From Klebsiella phage 05F01, in sequence record LC483177.1: a stretch of 64,000 nt of DNA. One strand, written 5' to 3'. Below, one piece after another: positions 2,703-24,215 of the stretch. Numbering within the stretch: the stretch's first letter is position 1; each line of letters opens with the position of its first letter. Made by a program: the position numbers and the translations under genes. The notes beneath the pieces were generated by a model. That model did no database searches and was not told where the DNA came from. It worked only from the letters and a program-made list of their open reading frames with translations.

Positions 2703-3365
2703 ATGATGACTATCAAACATATCTCTTTCGATGTATGGAATACCTTAATCACTGCCAATAAGGGGTATGCTTTAGAGCGTTCTCAGGTGATATCTTACTT
2801 TGCAGGTATTTCCACTAAAGAAGCAGCAGAAGCTTATGCACTTGTTAAAATGTCACTTGATATGGACGCTTCTCTTGGTATCTGTAATGGTGTAAGTCAT
2901 GCATGGTATGAACTAGGTAAGTTTTTGGGAGTAGATAGGTCAACAGCAGATAAAATCAGAACGCACTGTGAGAAAGCTTTTATTGCAAACCCACCTCACC
3001 TTGATAAATCTCTGGTTGACGAGTTATCTGCTCTTAGTAATAAACATGAGTTGAGTATTAAAAGTAATACCAACTTTATTTCAGGAGAGGTATTATCTGA
3101 GACTTTGGGTTTTTATGAGATGCCGTGGTGGAGCTTCACCCACTTCTCGGATGATTATGGTTGGTGCAAACCAGATCCACTATTCTTCCAATGGACACAG
3201 GTTTGTAGTGATATTCAAGGTATTCGTGCAGAAGAAATTTTACATGTAGGTGATAGTGAAATTTTTGATGGCAAATGTGTTGACATTGGATTTAACTTCT
3301 GTAAAATTGATAACCCTGAACACTTACTGAATAAACTTAAAAATGGAGAACTCATTAATGCGTAA
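2703..3365 (+). CDS. HAD-superfamily phosphatase/hydrolase-like protein
   Basis: RBS GAGGAAA. N-terminal ISFDVWNTLI resembles HAD motif I (DxDxT variant). C-terminal HVGDSEIFDGK resembles HAD motif IV (GDxxxD). Confidence 0.5.
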   Translation: MMTIKHISFDVWNTLITANKGYALERSQVISYFAGISTKEAAEAYALVKMSLDMDASLGICNGVSHAWYELGKFLGVDRSTADKIRTHCEKAFIANPPHLDKSLVDELSALSNKHELSIKSNTNFISGEVLSETLGFYEMPWWSFTHFSDDYGWCKPDPLFFQWTQVCSDIQGIRAEEILHVGDSEIFDGKCVDIGFNFCKIDNPEHLLNKLKNGELINA

Positions 3366-4185
3366 AACAACTCAATTCTTTGCACACAATTTTTCATCTC
3401 TGGCTGATGCAGGTTTTTCTACAGATGACTACTCCAAACTTAAATTTGGTAGTAATCAGTCAGCAAAGCGTTTGGGTTATGAATTAGCAGATAGGTTCTT
3501 TATTACTAAATGTGCTGATAAGTTTAATGAGCGATTCGTGGTAATTCCTTCACCATACAATCATGTTCACAATGCAGCAACAGAAATGTCTAATCATTTT
3601 GTAAACCGATTGAATTATCTATTCTCATGCAATAAGTATAAGAATAGTGTGGAGTGGGATATTATTCACCGTAAAGTCAGTTATATCAATGATTATGGTT
3701 TCTTGAGCAAAGAGGATCGTAAATCACTTATTGATGGGGATAGCTTCTACCTCAATAAAGAATTCTGGAGTGGAAAGACACTTATTTTTATTGATGATGT
3801 CAACATTACTGGTACCCATGAAGATAAGCTAGTAGACATTCTTAACGAAAATGAAGTAGAAAATGACACTTATTTTCTTTACTTTGCAAAATACACAGGG
3901 ACCGAGGCTAATACCGAAGCTGCATTAAACTTCAGCTATATCCATAGTGTAGAGAAGTTTATTGAGATGATTAAGGAAGAACATGATGCTAAATGTCTGG
4001 TTCGACCAATTAAGTATTTGATGTCTCAACCTGAGATAACATTTAAAGTGGCGATTTCACAATTACCAACCAACTATGTTGAACACTTGTTTTTCGGTTG
4101 CTTGGCAGAAGGCTATGACAAGATTGAAAAATACAATGAGAACTTTGAGTTCTTGAAACATTTCTATGAAAGTAATATCATGTAA
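3358..4185 (+). CDS. Type I phosphoribosyltransferase (PRTase) domain protein
   Basis: TLIFIDDVNITGTHEDK matches the PRPP-binding motif of type I PRTases (hydrophobic-DD-x-x-TG-T). The start was moved to ATG 3358, which is preceded by GGAGA. Confidence 0.55.
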   Translation: MRKTTQFFAHNFSSLADAGFSTDDYSKLKFGSNQSAKRLGYELADRFFITKCADKFNERFVVIPSPYNHVHNAATEMSNHFVNRLNYLFSCNKYKNSVEWDIIHRKVSYINDYGFLSKEDRKSLIDGDSFYLNKEFWSGKTLIFIDDVNITGTHEDKLVDILNENEVENDTYFLYFAKYTGTEANTEAALNFSYIHSVEKFIEMIKEEHDAKCLVRPIKYLMSQPEITFKVAISQLPTNYVEHLFFGCLAEGYDKIEKYNENFEFLKHFYESNIM

Positions 4186-4823: not shown

Positions 4824-4826
4824 ATA

Positions 4827-4851: not shown

Positions 4852-4860
4852 GGGTACAAT

Positions 4861-9769: not shown

Positions 9770-9779
9770 GGATATAACA

Positions 9780-10672: not shown

Positions 10673-10827
10673 ATGCATACAAAGAGATCATTGAGGCATT
10701 AGAGTGGTATTTAGGCGATGGCGTAAACCCACTGAGTTCAGACTGTATATATGAAATTATTAATCAAGAGCACGACCCTATTGAAACAATAGCAAAAGCT
10801 CTGGATTATTATAGGGAAAATAAATGA
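10669..10827 (+). CDS. Hypothetical small protein (52 aa), not in the ORF track
   Basis: It is translationally coupled by ATGA overlaps at both ends, with the upstream ORF and with nrdG. It fills an otherwise non-coding 150-nt gap. Confidence 0.35.
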   Translation: MNAYKEIIEALEWYLGDGVNPLSSDCIYEIINQEHDPIETIAKALDYYRENK

Positions 10828-12434: not shown

Positions 12435-12462
12435 TTGACATCATAGAAATTGTATGTAGAAT
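12435..12462 (+). promoter_or_regulatory. Sigma70-like promoter (TTGACA-16-TAGAAT)
   Basis: Consensus -35 and a near-consensus -10, upstream of the TerC-like gene. Confidence 0.55.
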
Positions 12463-12510: not shown

Positions 12511-13575
12511 ATGAACACTTTTATGAAATTTTACAAATGGCCCACATTCTTCTTTGTGTTGGCACTTTTAGCAGGGGCATGGATTGGCTTCGTTGAGGCT
12601 GGTGTAAGTGGAATGTTAAGTAGTGTATTGGCTGTTGGTATTCTGTGTATTCTTGAAATCTCACTGTCATTTGACAATGCGGTATTGAATGCTAAAAAAC
12701 TTCAAGATATGGAACAAAAATGGCGTGATTGGTTTATTAAGTGGGGGATGCTGATCGCCGTTTTCGGAATGCGCTTGGTTCTTCCTATCCTTATCGTATC
12801 TGTCTTAGGTGGAATGGCTCCGTGGACTGCTGTAAGCTTAGGTCTACATGACCCAGCTAAGTATGCAGAGGTGTTGCAAAGTAGCCACCATATTGTAGCT
12901 AGCTTTGGTGGTGCGTTCCTGATGATGGTTGCTCTTGAGTTCTTCCTTGATCATGAAAAAGATGTTCACTGGATGAAATGGATTGAATATCCTGTTAGTC
13001 ATATTGGTAAAGTGGGTATTGTTGCAGAAGCTTTCATTACACTTCTTATGATTATTGGAGCAAGTTTTGGTGCTCATGGAGATGATCAAGTGATGTTTAT
13101 TATCTCAGGTGTATGTGGTATCCTGCTCTTTGTGGGTATTCATTTCCTGAAAGAGTATCTTGAATCGAAGGATGAAGAGAAAGCAGCGGCATCTGTTGGT
13201 GCAGTAGTTAAATCAGGATTGGCTGGTGTTCTCTACCTAGAAGTTCTGGATGCATCTATGTCTTTTGATGGCCTGATTGCTGCATTTGCGATTACACAAT
13301 ATTTTCTTGTGATTATGTTAGGTTTGGGTGTTGGTGCCTTCTTTGTCCGAGAAATGACACTGCATGTTCTTGATAGTGGACATCTTGCTGAATTCCGTTA
13401 CCTTGAACATGGTGCTTTCTATGCTATCTTTTCTCTGGCTAGCATCATGCTCCTAAACTTCTTCTTTGAAGTCCCAGAAGTTGTCACCGGATTGATTGGT
13501 GTAGCATTCCTTACAGCAGCAGTGTGGCATAGTCATATCCTTAATAAACGTGAAGAGTCTCTTGTTACAAGTTGA
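12511..13575 (+). CDS. TerC-family (DUF475-like) integral membrane protein
   Basis: Multiple TM helices. LEISLSFDNAVLNA matches the TerC-family E-x-SLS-x-DN hallmark. A second DASMSFDG repeat shows the internal duplication typical of TerC. Confidence 0.6.
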   Translation: MNTFMKFYKWPTFFFVLALLAGAWIGFVEAGVSGMLSSVLAVGILCILEISLSFDNAVLNAKKLQDMEQKWRDWFIKWGMLIAVFGMRLVLPILIVSVLGGMAPWTAVSLGLHDPAKYAEVLQSSHHIVASFGGAFLMMVALEFFLDHEKDVHWMKWIEYPVSHIGKVGIVAEAFITLLMIIGASFGAHGDDQVMFIISGVCGILLFVGIHFLKEYLESKDEEKAAASVGAVVKSGLAGVLYLEVLDASMSFDGLIAAFAITQYFLVIMLGLGVGAFFVREMTLHVLDSGHLAEFRYLEHGAFYAIFSLASIMLLNFFFEVPEVVTGLIGVAFLTAAVWHSHILNKREESLVTS

Positions 13576-13576
13576 T

Positions 13577-13606
13577 AAAAAGCCCCGAAAGGGGCTTTAT
13601 TTTTAT
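13577..13606 (+). terminator. Rho-independent terminator (AAAAGCCCCGAAAGGGGCTTT plus T-run)
   Basis: GC-rich hairpin with a GAAA loop followed by ATTTTTATT. Confidence 0.75.
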
Positions 13607-13634
13607 TGACAGAATATCACTGGTAAGATAAGAT
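13606..13634 (+). promoter_or_regulatory. Sigma70-like promoter (TTGACA-17-TAAGAT)
   Basis: Exact TTGACA and a 17-bp spacer. The same -10 TAAGAT occurs at 27210. Confidence 0.6.
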
Positions 13635-13659
13635 GTATCTATCAAATGAAGAGGAGAAA

Positions 13660-14220
13660 ATGATGAACGTAACTAAAGATATGATTGATGCTTGGGTTAA
13701 GGATGCACCTGAATGGGCGGTAGGGATTGTTAAACGTGAAAGTAAACACGAACATAACAACTGTGCTTATGCATATGTAGGTGAAAAATTTGGGTATCAA
13801 TATATACTTTTTTCAAATGACGTATATCTTGACTATGTAGGTAAAAAATTTGCTTTTCAGGAATTTCAAACAGATGGTGATTCCTTCAAATATGAAGTGC
13901 TAGCGAAAACACATCAAGAACCTGTTGTTGGTGAAGATGTATTGGTCCACTTTGATGGAGATAATTCTAGTGTTTGGACGAAGTTTAAATTAGAATACCA
14001 GAAAGGTGACGTTGTTGTTCTATATGACTATCGTATTGAAGATGTAGAGACTTACAGATTTTCTCGTATCACAATGAAGAAATATGTTAAAACTGTAAGA
14101 GAAAATGCTATTGACCAGATTGCAAGTTTAATTGGTCGTGGGACTTTTGCAGAAGATGCTGAAGCAATCTATGATGCAATCAAGAGTAATGAGATCTCAA
14201 TTTTTACAGAGGAGAAATAA
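13660..14220 (+). CDS. Hypothetical protein
   Basis: The start was moved to ATG 13660, which is preceded by GAGGAGAAA. Confidence 0.45.
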   Translation: MMNVTKDMIDAWVKDAPEWAVGIVKRESKHEHNNCAYAYVGEKFGYQYILFSNDVYLDYVGKKFAFQEFQTDGDSFKYEVLAKTHQEPVVGEDVLVHFDGDNSSVWTKFKLEYQKGDVVVLYDYRIEDVETYRFSRITMKKYVKTVRENAIDQIASLIGRGTFAEDAEAIYDAIKSNEISIFTEEK

Positions 14221-14221
14221 A

Positions 14222-14656
14222 ATGAAAAATAAATTTATGGTGGCGGTTGTTCTGTCTTGTGCATTTCTTTTTGGTTGTGATGAAGATGTGCAACAGACTG
14301 CTGTTCCGGTATATCAGCAAGAACCTAACCCGGCTCCTGTGGTTGTAAATAATCCCGCACCTGTTGTAGTTCAAAATCATGATAGTGGTATGGGAAGCTT
14401 TATTGCAGGTGCCTTAGTTGGACATGCACTTAGTGGTGGTAGTAACACACGGGAACGTGTTGTTGAGCACCATTATTATGACAATCGTCCTGCCTCTACA
14501 AGCAATTACCGTAGTAATGGAAGTAGTAGCTCTCAAACAAAATACTCTGCTCCTAGTAGTCGTATCCAGACAATGAAGACACAACCTACTAAACGTAGCA
14601 CTTATACACCATTTAGCCGTTCTAGTAGCTCTAAATATTCTTCACGTAAACGTTAA
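14222..14656 (+). CDS. Lipoprotein with a glycine-zipper motif
   Basis: Signal peptide plus lipobox MKNKFMVAVVLSCAFLFGC. GMGSFIAGALVGHALSGG is a glycine zipper. The C-terminus is Ser/Thr/Arg-rich and low-complexity. Confidence 0.6.
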   Translation: MKNKFMVAVVLSCAFLFGCDEDVQQTAVPVYQQEPNPAPVVVNNPAPVVVQNHDSGMGSFIAGALVGHALSGGSNTRERVVEHHYYDNRPASTSNYRSNGSSSSQTKYSAPSSRIQTMKTQPTKRSTYTPFSRSSSSKYSSRKR

Positions 14657-14657
14657 T

Positions 14658-15236
14658 ATGCAAACTGAAGAATCTATTAAAGTCTTGTGGCGTAAGGTGA
14701 TGACTGAACTAAAGGAACATCACCCTACCTACTATAAACTACTTCTTGACAACGGGTACCGTGTAGGAGTAAGATTTAAGCATAATAATTCTTTTGGGTG
14801 GGCAAATGGAGTGGAGAAACTTGCTATTATTAATTTGTTTCTACATAGGAATAGTAATGATAGTATGGTGGTAGATACAATGTGGCATGAGTTGGCCCAT
14901 TGCATTGATTACTGTAAAAGAGGGTATTCAGATCATGGACCTAAATGGAAAGCTATAGCATCTGAAATAGGTGCAACACCAGAACGTGTTTCAAAAAGAG
15001 CAGTAAAAGTTGATTATAAATATGTTTGTGTGTACAGAAAGAGTAGTGTAGAATACATAGTATTGAAAGGGTATCACAGGAAACCTCCAGGATATAAAGC
15101 TAATAGCTTAATGTCAGATACATTCCAACGTGGCAACAAAGAAGGTAGCTACGGAAAAGTTTGGCTATATACTTGGGATAAATGGAAAGATATCTGTGAA
15201 CAACTAGGCAAATCTCCATATAAAGAGGAAAATTAA
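14658..15236 (+). CDS. SprT-like zinc metalloprotease domain protein
   Basis: The HExxH motif lies in WHELAHCIDYC with a downstream Cys/His, as in SprT/Spartan-like domains. Confidence 0.55.
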   Translation: MQTEESIKVLWRKVMTELKEHHPTYYKLLLDNGYRVGVRFKHNNSFGWANGVEKLAIINLFLHRNSNDSMVVDTMWHELAHCIDYCKRGYSDHGPKWKAIASEIGATPERVSKRAVKVDYKYVCVYRKSSVEYIVLKGYHRKPPGYKANSLMSDTFQRGNKEGSYGKVWLYTWDKWKDICEQLGKSPYKEEN

Positions 15237-15818
15237 ATGAAAAAGTGGAAAGTGGTTAAAGGTGATGGTAATCTTTTTAAAAATGCACCCAAATGGTGTA
15301 CTCAAATTTCTTCCGATGAAGATGGAACTCGCCGTTATTATGAGGAAGCTTTTGGTGTTAATGGGGCAAAATTTCAGAACATTCGTGAAGGTGCTGTTTG
15401 GTGTTTGAACAATAAAGACACCTTTAATGATGGCCTTGTAGTTATCGCTGAACGCGAATTAATTGAAGAAAAAGAAACTTCACCTAAACGAGTTAAAGGT
15501 CCTAAGCAACCTAAGAAAACATCCAATAAAGTTGTTGTAAACTATAATACAGGAGAAACCTACACAATTAAAGGTGTTGCTAGTGTGTCCCTGGAAGATA
15601 ACTCTTTCCAAGTATTCAAAGAATACAAACACGTAAATGAAATATTTAAATTTAATGGGTGTGAATTCCCATCTAAAGATGTTGCAAGTATTGAAATTCA
15701 TGGGGTTAATAAGACATATATTATTCACAAAAGTGAGGATTTTACAAACAACTTTGCATTTGTAACACAAAGCGGGGATTTTATTCTTAGTAATAGTTTT
15801 TCCTTAGTTGATTTTTGA
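15237..15818 (+). CDS. Hypothetical protein
   Basis: 193-aa ORF. Confidence 0.45.
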   Translation: MKKWKVVKGDGNLFKNAPKWCTQISSDEDGTRRYYEEAFGVNGAKFQNIREGAVWCLNNKDTFNDGLVVIAERELIEEKETSPKRVKGPKQPKKTSNKVVVNYNTGETYTIKGVASVSLEDNSFQVFKEYKHVNEIFKFNGCEFPSKDVASIEIHGVNKTYIIHKSEDFTNNFAFVTQSGDFILSNSFSLVDF

Positions 15819-15825
15819 GGTGACA

Positions 15826-16974
15826 ATGAAAAAAGTAAAACTAAGTATTGTTGAAGATTACGTAAGTCACTGGTCTTGGTGGGAAGGTGTCCGAGAACTT
15901 TTACAGAACGCCATCGATACAAAAGAATATGAAGTTGATTTTCTTTCCAATGCGATTAAGATCTCATCTCATGGAGGTAAAATACCTACACAAGCACTTC
16001 TGATGGGGCGCTCATCTAAGCAAGATGATGAAAGCACTATTGGTAAGTTTGGTGAAGGTATGAAACTTGGTTTTCTTGTCCTTATTCGTGAAGGTGCAAA
16101 AGTTCATGTTAATAACTTCTCAGATGTTTGGGAACCTGCTATGGAAATGGATGACACATTCGATCAGGAGATTCTGTGTGTGAATATTCATGAGAATATT
16201 TTACCAATGAATCAGAAAGTCGAAGTGGTGATTAATAATATCCCTAACCATGCTATGGCAGAGATTAAAGAGAAATTTGCACCACAAAAAGATTTAAAAG
16301 TGGCAATATCCAATGATAAGGGAACTGCTTACTTTAAAGATCGTGAAGGAAGTGATTGTAATTTATATGTTAGTGGGCTATTTGTATGCTCTGTTCAGGG
16401 TAAATACAAATTTGACTATGATTTCAAACCGGATGTGTTTGAACTCGATCGTGATAGGGATTCTGTTAGTGAGTTTAATGTTCAGTATTATGCATCACAA
16501 CTCATCTCTGAAAGTGACGATATCGAACTGTTGGTTGAACTTGCAATGGAAGAGTTTGACGATTTGAAATACTTTGAGGGTCGTAGAAAGAAAAACTCTG
16601 TAGGTAAATATTGGGGATGTTCATTAGATGAAAGTGAAGAAGATATTCTCACTGACCATGCTGTTGAACTTTTTGAAGAGAAGTATGGATATGATGCTGT
16701 CCCTATCAACGATTCCTGGAGTCAAGAGAAGAAATCCACTATCACAAAAGTGGCTATCTCTAAGGGATTTACTCCTATTGCAGTTAAAAAATCCCTTTAC
16801 AGTATGATTCAAGGTAGATACAATATTGAAGGTGAAGTTAACGAAATCTTGAAATTTGATGCTCTGGATTTCTTGGAGAATTTCCTTAAAAAATATGAGC
16901 GTAAGTTGTATAATAAGCCACGAAAAGAAATTGAGAATGTTATCTTCAAACTTAAACTTGCAAAAGAAAAGTGA
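15826..16974 (+). CDS. GHKL-type (Hsp90/MORC/MutL-like) ATPase domain protein
   Basis: N-box RELLQNAIDT (ExxxNAxD). A G2-box-like IGKFGEGMKLGFLV resembles Hsp90 IGQFGVGFYSAF. The start was moved to ATG 15826 after GAGGTGACA. Confidence 0.5.
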   Translation: MKKVKLSIVEDYVSHWSWWEGVRELLQNAIDTKEYEVDFLSNAIKISSHGGKIPTQALLMGRSSKQDDESTIGKFGEGMKLGFLVLIREGAKVHVNNFSDVWEPAMEMDDTFDQEILCVNIHENILPMNQKVEVVINNIPNHAMAEIKEKFAPQKDLKVAISNDKGTAYFKDREGSDCNLYVSGLFVCSVQGKYKFDYDFKPDVFELDRDRDSVSEFNVQYYASQLISESDDIELLVELAMEEFDDLKYFEGRRKKNSVGKYWGCSLDESEEDILTDHAVELFEEKYGYDAVPINDSWSQEKKSTITKVAISKGFTPIAVKKSLYSMIQGRYNIEGEVNEILKFDALDFLENFLKKYERKLYNKPRKEIENVIFKLKLAKEK

Positions 16975-16980
16975 GGTAGT

Positions 16981-18036
16981 ATGACAAGCCCTTTTAAACA
17001 ACAAACAGCTACAAAAGCTAAGTCACCGTTTGGTAACGTAGAGATTAAGAATAGTCCTATCAAGGCCCCAACTATTTCTAAAATTCCTAAAACACCTGTT
17101 ATCCGTTTGACTGAAGAAGAGATTGAATCCCTTGGAAGTGCTACTGGCACTTCTTTGAGGGCAGTATCTGGACAAATGCTGGCATTTCAACAGAACAATT
17201 CTAATGATGAAATGACCAGTCGTCTCAACACTATGATGCTGGAAGCTAAAAAACTTGATCCAGATTCTATCAAGCAAGCTAAAGGTATTTCTAAATTCAT
17301 TAAAAAGATTATGGGTGTAAAAGAAAACCTCTTTGCTGAATTTAAGACAATTGAGGCTCGCATTAATGAACTGTCAGAAGAAATTATGAAGGATATCCGA
17401 AAGCAAAATGATAGCTTGGTGTTCCTTGATAATTTAAAACGATCTGTAGGTGAGTTTCTACTTTCTATGGAACGTGACCTACAAATTCTGCAAGCAGAGT
17501 ATGAGAAGACTGAAGAAGACTTTAATATTGCTGATCCAGAAGACAAAAATGAACTACAGGCACGTCTTGACCTTATTTTAACTCGTGTTGCAGATATTAA
17601 AGGATTCAGAATCCTTTGTGTTCAGATGGGGCAGCGCATTGACAATATGAAGAAAACCAGTAAGATGCTTACTGTAGGTGCTAAGAACTTGCTAGAAAAA
17701 GCTGTTCCGGCTTATGCAGCATCTTTCTCCATTTACATTACAGCGAAAGAACAAGTTGAGGCTGCTAAAACTCAGAATAATATTATTGATGGATTTAATG
17801 ATGTTATTCAGAAAGGTAATGAAATGGCTAATGTTGCTCAAATTGAAGCAACTAAACTGTCAAATAAACAGACTGTTTCTCTTGAAACACTAAACCATGC
17901 TAAAGAGTCAATGTTCACTCTATTTGATGAAGTTGACCGCCTTAATAAAGAGGCTCGTGCAAACACACTTGAGTATATCAAAGCAGCAGATGTCCTTGAG
18001 TCCGATATTGCTAAACGTATTAGGGATGCCCGATAA
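16981..18036 (+). CDS. TelA-like (toxic anion resistance/KlaB family) coiled-coil protein, tentative
   Basis: 351 aa with a Lys/Pro-rich disordered N-terminus followed by a long all-helical body. It lies two genes upstream of the vWA-TerD pair. The assignment rests on composition and context only. Confidence 0.3.
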   Translation: MTSPFKQQTATKAKSPFGNVEIKNSPIKAPTISKIPKTPVIRLTEEEIESLGSATGTSLRAVSGQMLAFQQNNSNDEMTSRLNTMMLEAKKLDPDSIKQAKGISKFIKKIMGVKENLFAEFKTIEARINELSEEIMKDIRKQNDSLVFLDNLKRSVGEFLLSMERDLQILQAEYEKTEEDFNIADPEDKNELQARLDLILTRVADIKGFRILCVQMGQRIDNMKKTSKMLTVGAKNLLEKAVPAYAASFSIYITAKEQVEAAKTQNNIIDGFNDVIQKGNEMANVAQIEATKLSNKQTVSLETLNHAKESMFTLFDEVDRLNKEARANTLEYIKAADVLESDIAKRIRDAR

Positions 18037-18230
18037 TGAAAACTATTACATTGACACCACTAGAACTCATTACTATCATGGAAGATGCTTTTATTGATGG
18101 GTGGAATAAAGCAGAACAAAATGAATGGTGGGACCCAAAATTGTTCTTAGAACTTTATAAAGAGGAAGGTGATTCATCAGAAACCACAACTGCAATAGAA
18201 GATATTAAGGAGGAATACAATGTCTCGTAA
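18036..18230 (+). CDS. Hypothetical small acidic protein
   Basis: 64-aa ORF with an ATGA overlap. Confidence 0.35.
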   Translation: MKTITLTPLELITIMEDAFIDGWNKAEQNEWWDPKLFLELYKEEGDSSETTTAIEDIKEEYNVS

Positions 18231-18939
18231 TGTGGAAGATCCAAAAGAGGAAGTATGTAAAGAGGGGAGTTTACATGACTACTCTATCACACACCCAGCA
18301 TATGGTATTGTTACGGTTACTCACCCAACAGGTGGTGAAATGAAATTGTTTGGTAGTGACATGAAGCATAATAACCGTGTGTGCCTAACTTTCTACAAGG
18401 CAGTGGAAGACCGTTCACTAAGTAACTCTTGGATACACGGGAAAGAGATTCTTATGGAAGTCGAACTATCTGAAACTCAGTGGGCTAGTTTAGTTAGCAG
18501 TAATATGGGAAGCCCTACACCGATCACTTATCGTCACTATCGTGATGGAAACTTGGTAAATGTCCCTCTTATTGGTCAACAGAAGACAGAAAGAGAGAAG
18601 TTTAGTAAGGAATACCAGGATACTATCAGAACCCACATGGAGCGTGGTCAAGCTGCTTTAGCTAAACTTATGGAGCTTAAAGAAAAAGGTAAAGCTGGTA
18701 AAAAAGATATTGACGACCTTATCAGTATTATGCAACAATCATTAGGTAGATTCGCGGCAGATACAGTTTTCTCTGCTAAATGCTTTGAAGAAGTTATGGA
18801 GAAAACTGTTACACATGCTCAAGTTGAGATTGAGAATTCAATCAGCAACCTGGCAAAACGAATTGGCGCGGAACATTTAGGTATTAGCTTAGATAAAAAT
18901 TTATTAAGCAACATTAAAGAGGAAGACAATGACAATTAA
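18220..18939 (+). CDS. Hypothetical protein
   Basis: 239-aa ORF between the TelA-like and vWA genes. Confidence 0.45.
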   Translation: MSRNVEDPKEEVCKEGSLHDYSITHPAYGIVTVTHPTGGEMKLFGSDMKHNNRVCLTFYKAVEDRSLSNSWIHGKEILMEVELSETQWASLVSSNMGSPTPITYRHYRDGNLVNVPLIGQQKTEREKFSKEYQDTIRTHMERGQAALAKLMELKEKGKAGKKDIDDLISIMQQSLGRFAADTVFSAKCFEEVMEKTVTHAQVEIENSISNLAKRIGAEHLGISLDKNLLSNIKEEDNDN

Positions 18940-19201
18940 GTTTGATAAAGTTAAGAAAGAAAATCAAAGTGATGTAGTGACTAAGTTTAGATATCTTGGT
19001 TTAGGTGAAACTTTTATGTATGAGGCTGCATACCGTTCTGATGGCCTAGATTTGGAGACTAATGTCTTATTTATTAAAACTGACCATAATACTGCGTTAG
19101 AACTTAACTATACAGGCAATAACTGTACTTGTGATGATGATTTAGGAGTTGTTGCTGTAGATTTAGAAGTTAGTTCTGTAAAACTGAAAGGAGAAAAATA
19201 A
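18929..19201 (+). CDS. Hypothetical protein
   Basis: 90-aa ORF. Confidence 0.4.
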   Translation: MTIKFDKVKKENQSDVVTKFRYLGLGETFMYEAAYRSDGLDLETNVLFIKTDHNTALELNYTGNNCTCDDDLGVVAVDLEVSSVKLKGEK

Positions 19202-20010
19202 TGAGTAAAATTTCACTACAAAAACGTCAAGAGGTTCTTAAAATTAGCCTTAAAAAGGCTAATGTATCCGACAAGCTTACACTACGTGTTGCTTGCGCAT
19301 TAGATATTTCAAGTAGTATGCAAAATCTCTATCGTAATGGTAGTGTTAGTGAGTTGGTTGGAAAGCTACTTCCTTTTGGTATGATGTTTGATGATAATGC
19401 ACAGATTGATATGTGGGCTTTTAATCATGGGAGCAGTGAACTTCCTCCTGCTACAGAATCTGTTTACGATGATTATGTAAATAATTGCATGAAAAATATT
19501 TCTATTAGTGGTGGAACTAATTATGCACCTGTTATGGCAGATATCTATAACGAATACTTTGGTGGTGGAATTGTTACCAAGACCGTGTATAAAGAAGTAG
19601 AAGTCGATGAATATGTTCCAGCTAAGGGTTTTATGGCTAAATTAACAGGTAAAAAAGAACTTGTTAAAGTCAAAAAACAGGTATCTGAGCAAGTTGTCGA
19701 TCATGAAGCAATGGCTAATGTTGATACTACTCCTGCTATGGTTTTCTTCCAGACTGATGGCTCCAATTCAGATGAAAGTGCTGTAATTAGTTTGTTAAAT
19801 CGAAACAAAGATAAACCTATCTATTGGTTTATGGTTGGTGTAGGTGACCCACGTTACTTTGGATTCATCAAACGTATCTCTGACGAATTTGATAACGTTG
19901 ATTTTATTTCTGTAAAAGACCTTGACTTGTCAGATGAAGAACTTTACAATAAACTTCTATCTGGCGAATTTGGTCAGTGGATTAAAACTGTTGGTGTTAA
20001 AGGCGCTTAA
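19201..20010 (+). CDS. vWA-domain protein (TerY/TerF-like) with a TerD-like N-terminal leader
   Basis: N-terminal KISLQK..KISLKK repeat, like TerD. MIDAS motif DISSSM (DxSxS). Downstream GGTNYAPVM matches vWA MIDAS Thr/Asp positions. Confidence 0.6.
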   Translation: MSKISLQKRQEVLKISLKKANVSDKLTLRVACALDISSSMQNLYRNGSVSELVGKLLPFGMMFDDNAQIDMWAFNHGSSELPPATESVYDDYVNNCMKNISISGGTNYAPVMADIYNEYFGGGIVTKTVYKEVEVDEYVPAKGFMAKLTGKKELVKVKKQVSEQVVDHEAMANVDTTPAMVFFQTDGSNSDESAVISLLNRNKDKPIYWFMVGVGDPRYFGFIKRISDEFDNVDFISVKDLDLSDEELYNKLLSGEFGQWIKTVGVKGA

Positions 20011-20038
20011 TAATTTAAATAAATAAGGAGATATAAAC

Positions 20039-20638
20039 ATGGCTAAGATTTCACTGAAAAAAGGTTCCACTAATAAGATTTCTCTTAAAAAATCTGCACC
20101 ACTTCTTCGTAAGATTCGTGTAGAATTTTCTTGGACCTCTAATAGTAAACTGGACCTTGATGCAAGTGCATTGCTGTGTCGTAAAGACTCAAATGGTGCT
20201 GCACAAATTATTAGTGAAAAGCATATGGTTTTTTATGCACAAGGCTGTCAATTTGACCAATCTAAATCAGTGTTCTACGGTGGTGATGTTCGAGATGGTA
20301 GTGGTGATAAAGAAACAATTGAGATCAATCTTGAAACTCTCCCATCAGATATTGAAATTATTCCTCTGATCCTGACTATTGATGACCCACGTGATCAAGG
20401 ACTTACTTTTGGTAATGCAACTGGCGGTTTGCTTAAAATTATTAACGCAGAAACTGATGAAGAGATCCTTGACTTTGATTTCCTGGCTGACGATCTTAAA
20501 AACCTCAGCATTATTCATGTTGCAAATATTGAAGTAAATGGTGCTGATTGGAATGTTGAAGGTGTTGGAGTTGGTGGTGTAGGTGGTATTCTTGATGCAT
20601 TCCTCATGTTCGGTGCTTCTGCTGACTGGTTTGAATAA
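20039..20638 (+). CDS. TerD-family stress protein
   Basis: MAKISLKKGSTNKISLKK..IRVEFSWTS...LDLDASALL...YGGDVRDGSGDKETIEINL...IIPLILTID matches the TerD domain consensus (kISLsKg, DlDasall, GDnrtGegdgddE, vdL.kvp, ivfvvsi). Confidence 0.8.
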   Translation: MAKISLKKGSTNKISLKKSAPLLRKIRVEFSWTSNSKLDLDASALLCRKDSNGAAQIISEKHMVFYAQGCQFDQSKSVFYGGDVRDGSGDKETIEINLETLPSDIEIIPLILTIDDPRDQGLTFGNATGGLLKIINAETDEEILDFDFLADDLKNLSIIHVANIEVNGADWNVEGVGVGGVGGILDAFLMFGASADWFE

Positions 20639-20646
20639 GTAGGTAG

Positions 20647-20672
20647 AGAAGGAGGGTAATTCCCCTCCTTTT
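20647..20672 (+). terminator. Rho-independent terminator (GAAGGAGGGTAATTCCCCTCCTT plus TTTTG)
   Basis: GC-rich hairpin with a T-run. Confidence 0.6.
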
Positions 20673-20698
20673 GCATAATCCCTCTAAATGTGCTATAA
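20670..20698 (+). promoter_or_regulatory. Sigma70 promoter with an extended -10 (TTGCAT-17-TGcTATAAT)
   Basis: Perfect TATAAT with an upstream TG and a 17-bp spacer to TTGCAT. Confidence 0.6.
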
Positions 20699-20718
20699 TA
20701 GATAGACATAAACACAAA

Positions 20719-21255
20719 ATGGAGGTAGTATTGCATAATAAAATTAAGAAATCCTTATTAGGTGGATTGTTGGTAACAGCTTTTACCTTTTCTCCTATTA
20801 ATGCAGAAGCAAAAGTAAAGGCAGTTAATAATCAAGTAGTACATATCTGTAATAAGAAAGATACGCCTGTTAACTTACTTGCTTGTGCCATGTATGCTGA
20901 AGGACGTGGAGAAGGTGAGAAGGGTATGTTTGCTATAGGGAATGTCATACTAAATAGAGATTCATCAGAAGATTTTCCCGATGGAATACACTCTGTTGTC
21001 TACCAAAAAGGGCAGTTTACATACCTAAAAAGATTTTCTATTAGAATAAAAGATAAAGACTCTTGGGAAAAAGCACTGAAAGTTAGTAGAAAACTAATTT
21101 ATCTAAATGACAATTTTCCTGAGTTACGTGTAGCTAATGATATAACACGTGGTGCCACCTATTACAAAAGGTGGGATGTCCATCCTAAGTGGTCTAAGAA
21201 AATGAAAGTTGTCTATAGATATAAAGGTCATGTTTTTTATAAGGAGAGGAAATGA
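20719..21255 (+). CDS. SleB/CwlJ-like cell-wall hydrolase with a signal peptide (candidate endolysin)
   Basis: The start was moved to ATG 20719 after GGAGG. Signal peptide LLGGLLVTAFTFSPINAEA. CAMYAEGRGEGEKGMFAIGNVILNR..FPDGIHSVVYQKGQF matches the Hydrolase_2 (SleB) core. Confidence 0.65.
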   Translation: MEVVLHNKIKKSLLGGLLVTAFTFSPINAEAKVKAVNNQVVHICNKKDTPVNLLACAMYAEGRGEGEKGMFAIGNVILNRDSSEDFPDGIHSVVYQKGQFTYLKRFSIRIKDKDSWEKALKVSRKLIYLNDNFPELRVANDITRGATYYKRWDVHPKWSKKMKVVYRYKGHVFYKERK

Positions 21256-21542
21256 ACAATCTTTTTGATACAGGGCAATATGTAGCATCCTTTGCGGTTA
21301 AAGGTATGAGTGAAGAACAACTACTCTTTGCACGTAAACTGCTGCAAGGTGTTGCTGCAATTTATTTTCCGCAAGGTGCTGATGATACAATGTGGTGTAT
21401 CTCTTTTATAGTTGTAAGTGGTGAGACTCAACTTGTTCTTATCATTGATAAAGATTACTACGATGATTTTGTTGACAACAACCAGAATTTGGAGTACTCT
21501 TTATTTGAAGCGCAACCAGCAATCATTGAGGAGACACATTAA
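21252..21542 (+). CDS. Hypothetical protein
   Basis: 96-aa ORF with an ATGA overlap. Confidence 0.4.
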   Translation: MNNLFDTGQYVASFAVKGMSEEQLLFARKLLQGVAAIYFPQGADDTMWCISFIVVSGETQLVLIIDKDYYDDFVDNNQNLEYSLFEAQPAIIEETH

Positions 21543-21778
21543 TGGGCGAAGTTATTGAAGTTAACTTTAAAGAAAAGAAAAAGATCCAGAAGTATGTGAT
21601 CAAGAATTATATTTGTCTTGTTTGTAATCAGAAGTTTGTAAATGATAGCCGTTTAACTGAAGAAGAAAACCCTAGTCTCATCTCTGTAGGTGTCCGTGGG
21701 TATTGTGTCTGTAAGGATTGTGCTGTAGATGTAGCAAATGTTGTTAAAGAAGAGAAATGGGAGAGCAGCCATGACTAA
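21542..21778 (+). CDS. Small zinc-finger protein
   Basis: CLVCNQ...CVCKDC gives two CxxC pairs. Confidence 0.4.
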   Translation: MGEVIEVNFKEKKKIQKYVIKNYICLVCNQKFVNDSRLTEEENPSLISVGVRGYCVCKDCAVDVANVVKEEKWESSHD

Positions 21779-22235
21779 TATCATAGAACTGGCGCGGAGC
21801 ATGAAAGTAGCGTCAGAGAAAGCCAAACATGCAGGGGAGTCTCCTATAATGCCGTTTGATAATCGGATCTCTGCACTGAATGAATACCAGATTACGGTAT
21901 GCCCAGATAATGTTCTCGCTTTGGTAGAGGCGCTGGAGAAGGCTCATACAAAAGCAGATGTATACGACATGCTTCGTGATGACTACGGTTTGCGCAAAAA
22001 AGGTGTTGGGCTTGCAGATTTCGTTGACTGGCAGGCTAATCGTATCGCAGAGCTAGAGTCCCGCACCGTCAACATCAAATTTGCGCCAATTCAGGTAGAG
22101 GAATTGGGCAATGTTCGTGATGGGAAAAAGCATCCCTATATGTTCGGAGCTGGCTATAACAGCGCAGTTATTCACTGTGAGAGCGTTATTCAGCAGGAGT
22201 TAGACGCTAAAGGCATCAAGTGGGAGGCTGAGTGA
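21771..22235 (+). CDS. Ead/Ea22-like protein (lambdoid prophage-type), GC-rich
   Basis: The motif DNVLALVEALEKAH is typical of the Ead/Ea22-like family. Local GC is about 45-50% against about 35% around it. The start was moved to ATG 21771 (ATGA overlap). Confidence 0.5.
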   Translation: MTNIIELARSMKVASEKAKHAGESPIMPFDNRISALNEYQITVCPDNVLALVEALEKAHTKADVYDMLRDDYGLRKKGVGLADFVDWQANRIAELESRTVNIKFAPIQVEELGNVRDGKKHPYMFGAGYNSAVIHCESVIQQELDAKGIKWEAE

Positions 22236-22465
22236 TGTCAAATGCAAAACTAATTTCTGTTGCACCACAAATGCTAGATTCTTTGGTTTGGTCATTACAA
22301 CTTGCAGAAGTTGCTTTAGAAGATTGCAGAATAAACCGTATTAGATGCGGTCACTTAGATATCGTTAGTAAATACAAAGATGGTCGTGTATGTATTGGCC
22401 TGTGGCAAGATGAAGTAGATAAACTAGAGTCAGCTAGGGAAGTTTTACGAAAGGTTTTAGAATGA
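22232..22465 (+). CDS. Hypothetical protein
   Basis: 77-aa ORF, translationally coupled. Confidence 0.4.
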   Translation: MMSNAKLISVAPQMLDSLVWSLQLAEVALEDCRINRIRCGHLDIVSKYKDGRVCIGLWQDEVDKLESAREVLRKVLE

Positions 22466-22659
22466 TGAATAAAAAATCCATATTTATTAGGGTTATATTG
22501 TTCCCTGTCTATCTTATTTTATGGACATTAGGTCTTTTAGCTATTATAGGTAGCTTTATTTTCAATGAATTCTATGACAAAATGGATTATATACGAGACT
22601 TATTTCAAATGTGGGTTGATAAAATTGCCCCTTTAGACAACAAAAAAGGAGAAAAATAA
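22462..22659 (+). CDS. Small membrane protein
   Basis: 65 aa with a single hydrophobic helix IFIRVILFPVYLILWTLGLLAIIGSFIF. Confidence 0.4.
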   Translation: MMNKKSIFIRVILFPVYLILWTLGLLAIIGSFIFNEFYDKMDYIRDLFQMWVDKIAPLDNKKGEK

Positions 22660-22841
22660 TGGATCATGAAATCCGTCACTATGATTTAAATAAAATTGAG
22701 AGCATTCCTACTGATAAATTGATTAAGATCCGAGATGTTCAGAAGGCATATGCTGCCCAATGTTATCAAGAGTTTAGTGAAGCACGTAGCACAGAGACTC
22801 TGATTAAGATGGAATTGGAGCGTCGTTTCACTAAAAATTGA
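22659..22841 (+). CDS. Hypothetical small protein
   Basis: 60-aa ORF. Confidence 0.35.
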   Translation: MDHEIRHYDLNKIESIPTDKLIKIRDVQKAYAAQCYQEFSEARSTETLIKMELERRFTKN

Positions 22842-22890: not shown

Positions 22891-23496
22891 ATGAATCCAA
22901 TATATGTCCACCACATTACACCATTCCTGGATGGTGATATTGTTGGTGGTATCAACAAAGCAATTGAAAACCTTCCTGATGATGCTATCATCTGTCTACG
23001 AGATGCAGATACTCTCTTTCTCTTACCAAATCAACAAGAACAAGTTGATCATTTGGCAAGAGTTTATATACAATCCGGTGAATACGATGTAATCTCATGC
23101 ATGACAAATAGACTTGGTAGAAAACAATCTCATCAACTCTATCTAGGAGAAAGAAGCGATAACACAGACATCATAGAACATATGTGTATTGCAGCAGACC
23201 TACAATCAATGAAATACTTGAATGTAAAACCTGTCCCTGAAGGTAAGATAGTTGCAGGTGTTATGTTAATGTTTAAGAAATCTCTCATAAAAGAAGTACC
23301 TATGCTCCAACGTTCTGTCCAATTCGATATTATATGGAGTAGAGAGTTACATAATAAAAATAAAAAGATTGGTATCGCAGAAGGACTATATCTATGGCAT
23401 ACGTATCGTCTAGGTTCTGATGATCCAGAACGTGCTCTAGGTCACTTAATAAAAGCACAAGACTTTGATCTTGTTATCTCTTTGGAGGAAAATTGA
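22891..23496 (+). CDS. Glycosyltransferase-like protein (DxD)
   Basis: ICLRDADTLF DxD motif near the N-terminus. Confidence 0.4.
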   Translation: MNPIYVHHITPFLDGDIVGGINKAIENLPDDAIICLRDADTLFLLPNQQEQVDHLARVYIQSGEYDVISCMTNRLGRKQSHQLYLGERSDNTDIIEHMCIAADLQSMKYLNVKPVPEGKIVAGVMLMFKKSLIKEVPMLQRSVQFDIIWSRELHNKNKKIGIAEGLYLWHTYRLGSDDPERALGHLIKAQDFDLVISLEEN

Positions 23497-24215
23497 TTAC
23501 AATTGATGATAAAGACTTTAAAGTGGGTGTAGGTGTAATTACTATAGGAAAAAGGAAATTACCTGACTATAAAACAGAAAAATCTGGTGCTGACTTTAAG
23601 GTCTTTATAGATAAAGATAGGAAAGGGGTGGCATACGCAAGGAATATGTTAATAAAACAGTTTTATGATTCAGGTTATGATTACTGGTTTATTTTTGATG
23701 ATGATGTATATCCAAATGAGCCAGATCATGTAAGCTATATTAAATATTTTACTGAAACAGCATACAAATTCAACTATGACTGTTTTCTAAGTCCTGAGTA
23801 TTTTAGAGACAGTATATGCGGTTCTACTGATAATGGTGAGGTAATTCTATTTAGTGATGCGATGAGCCAATTCATGTTTTGCAGTAGAAAAATGGTAGAA
23901 GTTATTGGCTATATACCTACTCTCCCTAATAATTATGGGTATGAGGATGCGCTATTTTTGGATATGTTAAAACTTGCCCAAAGAAAGGGATTAATTAATA
24001 ATGGTGTAAATGGAATACCTTGTCCAACTAAAGCTTTGTGCTTTATACATCCAACTGATATGTACTCGGATAATATAGAGTCATTTACAAATATGACTTA
24101 TGAAGAGAAACAAAGCGCAATTTCAGCTAATGCCCCTTATTTTGAAAAAATCAAAAATAAAATATCTGAAGGTAAATACTTTTTCTCTTTTGATGAGGTA
24201 ATGGATGGAAAATAA
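23493..24215 (+). CDS. Glycosyltransferase-like protein (GT-A-like, DxD)
   Basis: YWFIFDDDVYP DxD motif. Confidence 0.4.
   Translation: MITIDDKDFKVGVGVITIGKRKLPDYKTEKSGADFKVFIDKDRKGVAYARNMLIKQFYDSGYDYWFIFDDDVYPNEPDHVSYIKYFTETAYKFNYDCFLSPEYFRDSICGSTDNGEVILFSDAMSQFMFCSRKMVEVIGYIPTLPNNYGYEDALFLDMLKLAQRKGLINNGVNGIPCPTKALCFIHPTDMYSDNIESFTNMTYEEKQSAISANAPYFEKIKNKISEGKYFFSFDEVMDGK

Follow-up and report, generated by a model that had tools for sequence, protein, structure and literature searches.

The Ter gene set of Klebsiella phage 05F01 and its possible role in guarding the envelope of the infected cell

The window analysed here is a stretch of 64,000 nucleotides of Klebsiella phage 05F01 (LC483177.1). 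It comes from a myophage, as the initial annotation had stated, with genes for tail sheath, baseplate wedge, tape measure, portal and terminase that are all encoded on the minus strand, the structural genes lying from 32.6 kb onward. The Ter genes are found on the plus strand, in the arm for replication and nucleotide metabolism, where NrdD, NrdG and a radical SAM protein are encoded too. The features considered are:

2703..3365, plus strand: HAD-like hydrolase (phrog_14393), of a Ter-associated small-molecule module; its 3' end extends into the PRTase gene
3343..4185, plus strand: PRTase_3 (ComF-like phosphoribosyltransferase, PF15610), of a family defined from Ter-associated biosynthetic operons
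12435..12462, plus strand: sigma-70-like promoter in the intergenic gap 5' of the DUF475 gene (TTGACA-16-TAGAAT, 11/12 matches; consensus match only)
12511..13575, plus strand: TerC-clan integral membrane protein DUF475 (PF04332), the sole membrane-spanning component
13579..13598, plus strand: intrinsic-terminator-like hairpin directly 3' of the DUF475 gene (8-bp stem with 5 GC pairs, then a T-run)
14658..15236, plus strand: SprT-like zincin (PF10263, E 5e-7), a conserved neighbour
15808..16974, plus strand: GHKL/sacsin-like ATPase-domain protein (phrog_6077, E 5e-115), between SprT and TelA
16981..18036, plus strand: TelA, toxic anion resistance family (PF05816), soluble and all-helical with a disordered N-terminus
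18036..18230, plus strand: small acidic protein of 64 aa (phrog_14200, E 4e-16) that accompanies the phage cluster
18220..18939, plus strand: 239-aa protein, an inserted passenger (phrog_6452, E 3e-52)
18929..19201, plus strand: 90-aa protein (phrog_11278, E 2e-14), its stop overlapping the vWA start codon
19201..20010, plus strand: standalone TerF-type vWA protein (PF10138), a leader and a vWA domain with intact MIDAS and a hairpin insertion
20039..20638, plus strand: TerD-domain protein (PF02342) with a short, less acidic Ca2+-binding loop
20671..21255, plus strand: SleB-like cell-wall hydrolase, putative endolysin (PF07486, E 2e-19; phrog_938 endolysin)

The ORF coordinates given in the initial annotation agreed exactly on re-examination. 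TelA matches PF05816 in Pfam (94.6 bits for a cut-off of 30, E 8e-27, model positions 13-330 of 332) and phrog_5890 'tellurite resistance' (E 1e-62). No transmembrane segment was found in TelA, its model is all-helical at low confidence (pLDDT 52.7), and residues 1-44 are predicted to be disordered and are Lys/Pro-rich. This protein had been described as all-helical, TelA/KlaB-like and with a Lys/Pro-rich tail; the family and, within the confidence of the model, the helical fold are borne out, but the 'tail' is the N-terminus. Three ORFs (64, 239 and 90 aa) intervene between TelA and the vWA gene, and not one as had been proposed.

The vWA ORF matches PF10138 (vWA-TerF-like) with 134 bits (Pfam cut-off 29.4, E 1e-38). 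Foldseek assigned the vWA fold to its AF2 model (pLDDT 89), with matches to ANTXR2, integrin I-domains, the MDN1 MIDAS and the vWA domains of copines; residues 126-166 form a long beta-hairpin insertion. The DxSxS MIDAS predicted earlier is present as D35-I-S37-S-S39, and D35, S37 and S39, together with T106 and D186, are invariant across 21 homologues (alignment A1). Of the earlier name 'TerY/TerF-like', only the TerF half can be kept: PF10138 was the sole family matched, and the comparison with TerY does not hold. At the N-terminus lies a conserved leader, 'KISLxKRQExLKISLKK', that had been read as TerD-like and fused to the vWA domain. The leader is real, but in true TerF proteins the KISLKK leader is located between the TerD and vWA domains, and AF2 renders it here as a helix; it therefore belongs to the vWA module of TerF itself and is no remnant of TerD, a detail that is new here.

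As first annotated, the ORF at 20039..20638 encodes a TerD-domain protein, matching PF02342 (106.6 bits, cut-off 25.3, E 1e-30) and the solved TerD structures 2kxt and 3ibz (E about 1e-20). The DLD motif is retained, and the Ca2+ loop reads 'GDVRDGSGDK--E' against 'GDNRTGEGDGDDE', with two residues fewer and several acidic ligands missing (alignment A2). This shortened, less acidic loop, as it appears in the alignment, is a detail new here, and because the loop is short and ligand-poor a Ca2+-sensing step may not apply to the phage protein.

The Ter system extends beyond these three genes, as DUF475, PRTase_3 and the HAD-like hydrolase belong to it too. The DUF475 protein matches PF04332 (E 5e-93) and TerC PF03741 (E 3e-17), carries the motifs 'SLSFDNA' and 'DASMSFDG', and is, judged from its sequence with about 8-9 hydrophobic segments, a multi-pass membrane protein; it is 83% identical to a membrane protein of Klebsiella phage FKP3 that shares its position in the cluster. 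PRTase_3 (PF15610, 151 bits, cut-off 28.7, E 4e-44) contains the PRPP-loop motif 'LIFIDDVNITGT', and its versions in the Stephanstirmvirinae are 63-70% identical. The HAD-like protein matches phrog_14393 'hydrolase' (E 1e-82) and, weakly, TIGR02252 (HAD family IA, E 9e-9), and its orthologues are found immediately 5' of PRTase_3 in phAPEC8, FKP3, FBKp34 and locus L008. Neither the membrane gene nor the PRTase/HAD pair figured in the initial annotation.

The Ter components are scattered across about 17 kb with unrelated genes interleaved, and DUF475, TelA, vWA and TerD span 8 kb with phage-specific genes in between. SprT-like orthologues abut TelA on its upstream side in phAPEC8, L009 and FKP3. 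The GHKL-like protein (NF047352, sacsin N-terminal ATP-binding-like domain, E 4e-6) is missing at the equivalent position of phAPEC8 and occurs in many phages, whose Ter status was not screened; it is probably an insertion outside the Ter set. Homologues of the 64-aa protein lie between TelA and vWA in phAPEC8, FKP3 and L008, and phAPEC8 has two paralogues of the 90-aa protein, directly 5' of vWA and of TerD respectively. Homologues of the 239-aa protein in FBKp34, phiCbK and Microbacterium phage Cinna have no Ter gene within 5-9 kb. Promoter matches across the scan were no more numerous than in shuffled sequence. TerB, TerA, TerZ and ATP-grasp were not detected among the scanned ORFs, and the PADLOC models gave no match to the core Ter proteins.

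The closest clusters are those of the Stephanstirmvirinae, in phAPEC8 (gp047-gp067), FKP3 and Klebsiella phage vB_KpM_FBKp34 (gp124-gp142, described in PMC8386662). They share with the window, in largely matching order, HAD, PRTase_3, a TerC-clan membrane protein, SprT-like, TelA, the small acidic protein, vWA, TerD, the SleB-like hydrolase, glycosyltransferases, primase-helicase and DNA polymerase A, and FBKp34 has in addition the same PARP, NrdD, NrdG and NinX block. The membrane gene is DUF475 in the window and FKP3 but TerC proper in phAPEC8 and FBKp34; the window differs also by the inserted GHKL-like and 239-aa genes and by a PARP and NrdDG block that sets PRTase and HAD apart from the rest. 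Amino-acid identities are low (TelA 41%, with phAPEC8 gp057; TerD 49%; vWA 60-68%; major capsid protein about 50%), which places the phage in a separate lineage of genus rank or higher. The same syntenic set is found in over 100 other Stephanstirmvirinae records, with the cluster order kept in phAPEC8, FKP3, L008 and FBKp34, and the earlier view that such a cluster is unusual for a lytic myophage has to be abandoned. Phage records, spread over unrelated groups, number 192 for vWA, 181 for TelA, 156 for PRTase_3, 147 for TerD and 39 for DUF475. Relative to locus L007, a copy with 95-98% nucleotide identity, dN/dS is 0.035 for TelA, 0.077 for vWA and 0.105 for TerD; the Ter genes are thus under purifying selection, which is also new here.

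Among cellular systems the nearest is a compact TelA-vWA-DUF475-TerD operon, found on plasmid p2 of Caballeronia grimmiae (L055) and also in a Gallionellaceae MAG (L010); in it DUF475 adjoins vWA and TerD. The four families are the same, the standalone leader-bearing vWA is 36-37% identical and DUF475 matches at E 1e-79 to 1e-89; in L010 a HAD hydrolase lies just 3' of the operon. The bacterial genes are contiguous whereas those of the phage are spread over 8 kb, and the bacterial TerD is canonical (231 bits, against 107 bits and a shortened Ca2+ loop in the phage). These compact operons argue that the four proteins work together. The IncHI2 operon terZABCDEF (R478 type; pPK8217-MCR1, L054), which works cited in PMC12054061 and PMC8386662 characterised experimentally for its resistance to tellurite and colicins and its inhibition of phages, shares TerD-family proteins (phmmer E 7e-24 for TerD), a TerC-clan membrane protein, the vWA module of TerF, which has the same 'ISLxK...SLxK' leader, and a nearby PRTase. 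By contrast, the phage has TelA, which the IncHI2 operon lacks, but neither TerB, the TerZ/TerA/TerE paralogue array nor a detectable ATP-grasp, and its vWA protein (about 26% identity over the vWA) is without the TerD domain that TerF has at its N-terminus. The RK2 kilA/tel locus (klaA-telA-telB) has a TelA-family protein in common, but no KlaA or TelB partner was found among the scanned ORFs, TelA being grouped in the phage with vWA, TerD and DUF475. Among jumbo and other phages, Acinetobacter phage ME3, Caulobacter and Rhizobium RHph phages and Pseudomonas phage PhiPsa374 (PMC7824862, PMC9796965) also encode TerD, TerC/DUF475, TerF-vWA and TelA, with PRTase and HAD in the ME3, Rhizobium and Caulobacter phages, but belong to unrelated virion lineages with other genome sizes (identity 23-44%); the role proposed for their Ter systems is superinfection exclusion or stress tolerance.

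We propose that these genes are the core of a phage-encoded Ter system, vertically inherited in large myophages related to the Stephanstirmvirinae, that guards the envelope of the infected cell, and we put the chance of this being right at about even. Its most likely role would be to guard the envelope or to exclude superinfecting phages, close to the membrane and in dependence on metal. It is made of DUF475 (TerC-clan), TelA, the standalone TerF-type vWA and TerD, with PRTase_3 and the HAD-like hydrolase. During infection, DUF475 would sit in the inner membrane and move or sense divalent cations as TerC-family proteins do; soluble acidic TerD, vWA and TelA would assemble under it, the vWA gripping a partner through its MIDAS metal, and a nucleoside-like ligand may come from PRTase and HAD. 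A similar proposal, in which phage Ter systems exclude superinfecting phages and TelA and TerF-vWA are sub-membrane components, was made in PMC7824862. Deletion of terC in K. pneumoniae led to larger plaques, lower phage resistance and Zn/Mn sensitivity (PMC12054061), and transposon work of 1995, as cited there, tied terC, terD and terZ to phage inhibition and colicin resistance.

TerC-family proteins of Bacillus subtilis act in Mn2+ export and the metalation of secreted enzymes, and the phage genes could likewise serve metal homeostasis, a TerC-clan transporter regulated by TerD, vWA and TelA tuning Mn2+, Zn2+ or Ca2+ inside infected cells or in the periplasm, for the benefit of phage enzymes or for the metalation of exported phage proteins and not to exclude competitors. 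We find this rather unlikely: the paired TerC-like 'S(F)DN/DG' motifs of DUF475, the metal/radical enzymes NrdD, NrdG and radical SAM protein in the same arm, the exported hydrolase that always comes next after the cluster, and the Zn(II)/Mn(II) resistance given by K. pneumoniae TerC and metal induction of its ter operon (PMC12054061) agree with it, but SleB-type hydrolases are not known as metalloenzymes, the Rfam scan found no yybP-ykoY Mn2+ riboswitch upstream of the DUF475 gene, and the PRTase/HAD pair and the need for TelA would be left unexplained.

It is improbable that the phage versions of TerD, vWA and TelA act as dominant-negative decoys poisoning a plasmid- or island-borne host Ter complex that restricts phage. 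Host ter operons do lower plaque size and phage growth (PMC12054061), the 2546 plasmid records with TerF-type vWA modules (mainly Klebsiella, Escherichia, Salmonella and Enterobacter) concentrate in genera that host related phages, and a degenerate Ca2+ loop would suit a mimic that binds but is inactive. However, the phages hold a complete autonomous set with its own membrane component and PRTase/HAD, also where hosts have no known ter operon (Caulobacter, Rhizobium), identity to the IncHI2 TerF and TerD is low, and the invariant MIDAS residues argue for an active protein.

Somewhat less probable still is a guard of lysis timing, whereby the cluster steadies the membrane potential and prevents premature activation of the downstream endolysin, taken to be Sec-exported by its signal-like hydrophobic N-terminal segment 'KKSLLGGLLVTAFTFSPINAEA'. 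Such a hydrolase lies 3' of the Ter genes in every relative examined (phAPEC8, FKP3, FBKp34, L007, L008 and L009), and cluster and endolysin share a tightly packed gene string (about 13633 to 22841) that no strong terminator interrupts; yet this adjacency may simply be inherited synteny of one phage lineage, and the analysis established no link to a holin or pinholin.

That the vWA protein, and perhaps its neighbours, are virion or tail components is very improbable: vWA domains are known in some phage tail proteins and the FKP3 orthologue (phmmer E 5e-115) is annotated 'tail protein', but the gene lies in the non-structural replication-side arm away from the virion genes, shares PF10138 with plasmid TerF, sits in bacteria in one operon with TelA, DUF475 and TerD and belongs to PHROG 5359, which has no structural label, and the automated FKP3 names are unreliable since TerD and PRTase_3 are called there 'HNH endonuclease' and 'Zot-like toxin'.

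Phage Ter systems were described previously (PMC7824862, section 3.4.10; PMC8386662; PMC9796965), their function during infection being stated as unknown in PMC9796965, and the suggestion of the initial annotation, that they act on metal or membrane stress or protect the infected cell, is the leading hypothesis in this literature. As the gene set is conserved and published in phage relatives, the window adds a further case to a puzzle already known and does not represent a system of a new kind. If the Ter set is an envelope guard, the envelope of the infected cell would be conditioned or protected against superinfecting phages, pore-forming colicins and host abortive-infection pores, an outcome that would parallel what plasmid ter operons do in inhibiting phages and conferring resistance to colicins, with tellurite resistance as such probably incidental.

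All three ORFs of the initial annotation were recovered exactly, on the plus strand, and their assignment to the TelA, vWA and TerD families was confirmed by HMM searches in which each protein scored far above the Pfam gathering threshold. The cluster is larger than had been seen, as a DUF475 protein, a PRTase_3 and an HAD-like hydrolase have to be added to it, and TelA and vWA are separated by three ORFs (64, 239 and 90 aa) and not by one. The window is that of a myophage, with genes for tail sheath, baseplate wedge, tape measure, tail fibres, major head protein, portal and large terminase on the minus strand from about 32.6 kb; the plus-strand arm that carries the Ter cluster also encodes NrdD, NrdG, a primase-helicase and a DNA polymerase A. 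The features considered are:

2703-3365: HAD-like hydrolase, overlapping the PRTase gene
3343-4185: PRTase_3 (PF15610, E 4e-44), PRPP loop intact
5313-6614, plus strand: eukaryote-like PARP; its Pfam domains are WGR (E 4e-26), PARP regulatory (E 1e-7) and PARP catalytic (E 5e-6)
6631-7560, plus strand: radical SAM protein
7655-9769, plus strand: NrdD, anaerobic ribonucleotide reductase, with ATP-cone
10824-11312, plus strand: NrdG, the activase
12511-13575: DUF475 protein
14658-15236, plus strand: SprT-like zincin metallopeptidase (PF10263)
15808-16974, plus strand: GHKL/sacsin-like ATP-binding protein, 388 aa (phrog_6077; NF047352 E 4e-6, N-terminal domain)
16981-18036, plus strand: TelA
18929-19201, plus strand: 90-aa protein (phrog_11278), overlapping the vWA start codon
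19201-20010, plus strand: vWA protein
20039-20638, plus strand: TerD
20671-21255, plus strand: SleB-like cell-wall hydrolase (PF07486); its N-terminus has a signal-like hydrophobic stretch, KKSLLGGLLVTAFTFSPINAEA
22891-25128, plus strand: three consecutive glycosyltransferase-like genes, one with a weak TET-associated glycosyltransferase match
63818-63893, minus strand: tRNA-Phe (GAA), at the window end

TerD scores 106.6 bits on PF02342, whose cut-off is 25.3, and covers model positions 3-181 of 187; its residues 4-195 align with two experimental TerD structures, 2kxt (E 4e-20) and 3ibz (E 2e-19). From NMR work on Klebsiella TerD, the Ca2+ motifs are said to be DLD(A/V)S and an acidic loop, GDN(R/L)TG(E/A)GDGDDE. 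The DLD motif (D39-L40-D41) is invariant in our alignment, and the loop of the window protein, GDVRDGSGDK--E against the canonical GDN(R)TGEGDGDDE, is two residues shorter with fewer acidic side chains, retaining D83, G87, G89 and E92 while several acidic positions are lost. With a loop of this kind, Ca2+ binding by the phage TerD is uncertain. The shorter, less acidic state is common to the whole phAPEC8-like clade, with GNL or GSM in the loop. Exact-sequence look-up of TerD gave no match on record, and no relative could be confirmed in IMG/VR when it was scanned with peptide patterns from TerD; a word-indexed protein search returned 5.

The vWA protein matches the vWA-TerF-like family PF10138 with 134 bits (cut-off 29.4), in two stretches split by an insertion (residues 126-166), a long two-stranded beta-arm with a conserved KGFxxKLxGK at its tip. 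The DxSxS MIDAS previously read from the sequence is complete, D35, S37, S39, T106 and D186 being invariant among 21 homologues, and the AF2 model (mean pLDDT 89.1), which matches ANTXR2, integrin I-domains, the MDN1 MIDAS domain and copine vWA with a Foldseek probability of 1.00, predicts a vWA (Rossmann-like) fold with a full MIDAS. TerY-type vWA proteins are reportedly, after Anantharaman et al. in 2012, generic PF00092-type domains linked with a Ser/Thr kinase and a PP2C phosphatase. The window protein has no PF00092 match and no kinase or PP2C family was found among about 50 scanned window ORFs; from the proposed likeness to TerY or TerF, we therefore retain TerF and reject TerY.

The vWA protein starts with MSKISLQKRQEVLKISLKK and TerD with MAKISLKKGSTNKISLKK, and at sequence level the resemblance between the two leaders, which had been noticed before, is real; the implied origin from TerD does not hold. 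Leader positions L6, K8, R9, L17 and K19 are invariant in 21 phage vWA homologues and residues 6-19 are predicted by AF2 to form a helix. Standalone proteins of bacteria have this leader, too, in front of their vWA domain, and in true TerF fusions it follows the TerD domain and a linker: in TerF of the IncHI2 plasmid pPK8217-MCR1 the region reads ...AQPAPQPAKPARISLEKKLETRSPRLVSLAKKASVSLTK..., and a Clostridium homologue has the same succession of TerD domain, leader and vWA. Since the leader both lies between TerD domain and vWA in true TerF and heads standalone vWAs, it is intrinsic to the TerF vWA module and is not a TerD fragment. In the window protein a 25-residue leader is followed directly by the vWA domain with no N-terminal TerD domain, making it a standalone form of the TerF module, as in a Gallionellaceae MAG and on a Caballeronia grimmiae plasmid.

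TelA matches PF05816 with 94.6 bits (cut-off 30; model positions 13-330 of 332) and has no hydrophobic or transmembrane segment. It had been described as all-helical with a Lys/Pro-rich tail: the structure model does contain only long helices, at low confidence (pLDDT 52.7), and the Lys/Pro-rich segment is a disordered N-terminus. This model was built from just 2 sequences, because word-indexed searches gave few relatives (1 for TelA); exhaustive HMMER search gave 259 representatives, the closest outside its own cluster being 37% identical. PDB sequence searches returned nothing meaningful for TelA, vWA, PRTase_3, the GHKL-like protein or the 239-aa protein. The vault-associated PARP4 has a vWA domain, and as a curiosity genes for a PARP, for TelA and for a vWA protein are all found in this arm of the phage. 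The passage of PMC3762200 that cites Suprenant et al. 2007 reports the TelA family as related to the major vault protein.

DUF475 matches PF04332 with 312.6 bits (cut-off 27, E 5e-93) and also TerC (63 bits, E 3e-17), while the NCBIfam PRK14013 models give 258-405 bits, under their equivalog/subfamily cut-offs of 385-657 bits; with about 8-9 hydrophobic segments, it is a TerC-clan multi-pass membrane protein, with a full-length family match. Its gene is flanked by a sigma-70-like promoter (11/12 consensus matches) and a strong terminator, and genes are tightly packed from 13633 to about 22841, the putative endolysin included. As the promoter scan overall is no better than chance (37 found against 33.2 +/- 5.3 expected), we make no claim of early timing. 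Among cellular genomes, searched as one per species plus plasmids, compact TelA-vWA-DUF475-TerD operons occur in the Gallionellaceae MAG, with an HAD hydrolase directly 3' of the operon, and on the conjugative plasmid p2 of C. grimmiae. These operons are direct evidence that the window DUF475, though 3.4 kb upstream, belongs functionally with TelA, vWA and TerD. The classical IncHI2 terZABCDEF operon resembles the window in having TerD proteins, TerC, TerF and a neighbouring PRTase, but it also includes TerB and several TerD paralogues, and it has no TelA.

According to what Anantharaman et al. reportedly described in 2012, Ter-linked PRTase and HAD phosphatase genes are joined in full versions by an ATP-grasp and a C-C lyase. 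The description of this biosynthetic module also rests on the summary in PMC7824862. No ATP-grasp or lyase family was found in the neighbouring ORFs (386-2608 and 4197-5202), so that the window module, with PRTase_3 and HAD, appears partial. PADLOC-DB 2.0 models gave no match for DUF475, TelA, vWA or TerD, the single match being a weak retron-type PRTase for PRTase_3 (E 1e-5).

The 3.7-kb region had no megablast match in 50,697 phage records, and thus no close sequenced relative among them; the cluster does recur, at 95-98% nucleotide identity, on a metagenome contig from Logan (L007). Compared with this contig, dN/dS is 0.035 for TelA, 0.077 for vWA and 0.105 for TerD (68 synonymous and 15 non-synonymous differences in total), and the three genes are, judging by these substitutions, functional rather than decaying cargo. 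Identity of the major capsid protein to its counterparts in Stephanstirmvirinae (phi92, phAPEC8, Justusliebigvirus phages) is only about 50%. Relatives were found by tblastn in 147 phage records for TerD, 181 for TelA, 192 for vWA, 156 for PRTase_3 and 39 for DUF475, the bulk being Escherichia and Klebsiella Stephanstirmvirinae, with others in Caulobacter, Brevundimonas, Rhizobium, Pseudomonas syringae, Acinetobacter and Bacillus phages.

In phAPEC8 the order is HAD, PRTase_3, TerC-like membrane protein, SprT-like, TelA, small acidic protein, 90-aa protein, vWA, 90-aa paralogue, TerD, endolysin and glycosyltransferases, and Klebsiella phage FKP3, whose DUF475 is 83% identical to that of the window, has the same order. 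In both, the PRTase/HAD pair is much closer to the DUF475/TerC-like gene than in the window, where PARP, radical SAM, NrdD, NrdG and NinX-like and LysM genes (11294-12377) intervene. FBKp34 shares the PARP, NrdD, NrdG and NinX block with the window (its gp111 is a clear PARP orthologue, phmmer E 5e-225); next come TerC, vWA, a pair of TerD genes, TelA and a cell-wall hydrolase, with HAD-PRTase_3 after them. The initial annotation called such a cluster unusual in a lytic myophage; this conserved order argues otherwise, and phage ter genes are already covered by Iyer et al., who included PRTase and HAD versions and proposed superinfection exclusion (PMC7824862), by the FBKp34 paper, which names terC, terF-vWA, terD and telA (PMC8386662), and by the PhiPsa374 paper, for which they are widespread in phages with a role unknown (PMC9796965). 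Our literature search found no experimental work on phage-encoded Ter genes. The observation itself is confirmed and its earlier interpretation partly supported; the window is a divergent addition to phage-borne Ter systems already described, and the presence of the cluster is no discovery in itself.

Several neighbours were considered as further members. The SprT-like gene lies directly 5' of TelA in phAPEC8, FKP3 and a further comparator (L009). It may accompany the phage Ter genes as a conserved partner, or its place may just reflect inherited synteny. The 90-aa protein, which has two paralogues in phAPEC8 (8430-8708 and 9730-9999, directly 5' of vWA and of TerD), may be a small phage-specific adaptor. 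The GHKL-like protein, with homologues annotated "histidine kinase-like ATPase", "HATPase" or "RIIA lysis inhibitor" in other phages, was rejected as a core Ter part, as it lies directly 5' of TelA here but is absent from that position in phAPEC8 and FKP3. The 239-aa protein (phrog_6452) was likewise rejected as a new component, lying about 16 kb from the Ter genes in FBKp34; no Ter genes were found within 5-7 kb of its homologues in phiCbK and Microbacterium phage Cinna. The glycosyltransferase-like genes, annotated at the matching position in phAPEC8 and FKP3, may serve DNA or surface glycosylation. Between the DUF475 and SprT genes, 14219-14656 (plus strand) encodes a possible lipoprotein, small and Ser-rich, which has one hydrophobic segment and whose N-terminus resembles a lipobox (LSCAFLFGC).

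The analysis establishes the parts list, folds and motifs, membrane or soluble character, synteny, bacterial operonic linkage and constraint. From work cited in PMC12054061 and PMC8386662, ter operons on plasmids make cells resistant to tellurite and colicins and inhibit phages. In the scheme that we propose, DUF475 would be a membrane anchor handling divalent cations, beneath which TerD, the MIDAS-bearing vWA and the helical TelA would gather; PRTase and HAD may supply a nucleoside-like ligand, and the envelope would resist superinfecting phages, colicins and abortive-infection pores until the phage cycle is done. We give this scheme, taken as a whole, an even chance of being right. Deletion of terC in K. 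pneumoniae gives larger plaques and more sensitivity to Zn and Mn (PMC12054061). No Mn2+ yybP-ykoY riboswitch was found 5' of the window TerC-clan gene, Rfam giving just a tRNA in the whole window. We consider it unlikely that the cluster is an auxiliary function for metal supply. That it acts as a decoy of the host Ter system seems quite improbable. The SleB-like hydrolase, probably an exported or SAR-type endolysin, always adjoins Ter genes in relatives, and a lysis-timing guard tied to this signal-bearing neighbour is a very doubtful reading. A structural role of the vWA protein is scarcely credible: its sole hint is the automated label "tail protein" for the orthologue in FKP3 (PP895363.1, 10684-11478), but the same record names the orthologues of TerD "HNH endonuclease" (11573-12175), of PRTase_3 "Zot-like toxin" (1660-2496) and of the SprT-like protein "DNA helicase" (8239-8817), and phmmer orthology of these four genes to those of the window makes their FKP3 names wrong.

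TerD (MAKISLKKGSTNKISLKK) and the TerF-type vWA module (MSKISLQKRQEVLKISLKK) both start with a ΦSLxK...ΦSLxK peptide, which is kept from phages to IncHI2 TerF. It is conceivable, at a low probability, that this peptide is a common docking signal of TerD and vWA for one membrane partner (DUF475/TerC or TelA); as TerD has lost much of its Ca2+ loop in this phage lineage, such a complex could be a constitutive, calcium-independent guard of the membrane, and it could keep the infected cell energised, block superinfection and prevent early triggering of the signal-bearing endolysin.

Of the bacterial factors for stress and phage resistance that lack a known mechanism, Ter proteins are some of the most widespread. 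Lytic phages retain a reduced version under strong constraint (membrane protein, TelA, vWA, TerD, plus PRTase and HAD), which points to a minimal working Ter core and offers a small genetic system for testing the role of Ter. The value of the window is comparative: its divergent lineage helps to define the conserved core, sharpening which parts are indispensable (MIDAS, DLD motif, leader peptide, beta-hairpin tip) and which are dispensable (extended acidic Ca2+ loop, TerB, TerD-vWA fusion), and draws attention to features that can be tested (leader peptide, hairpin tip, degenerate Ca2+ loop).
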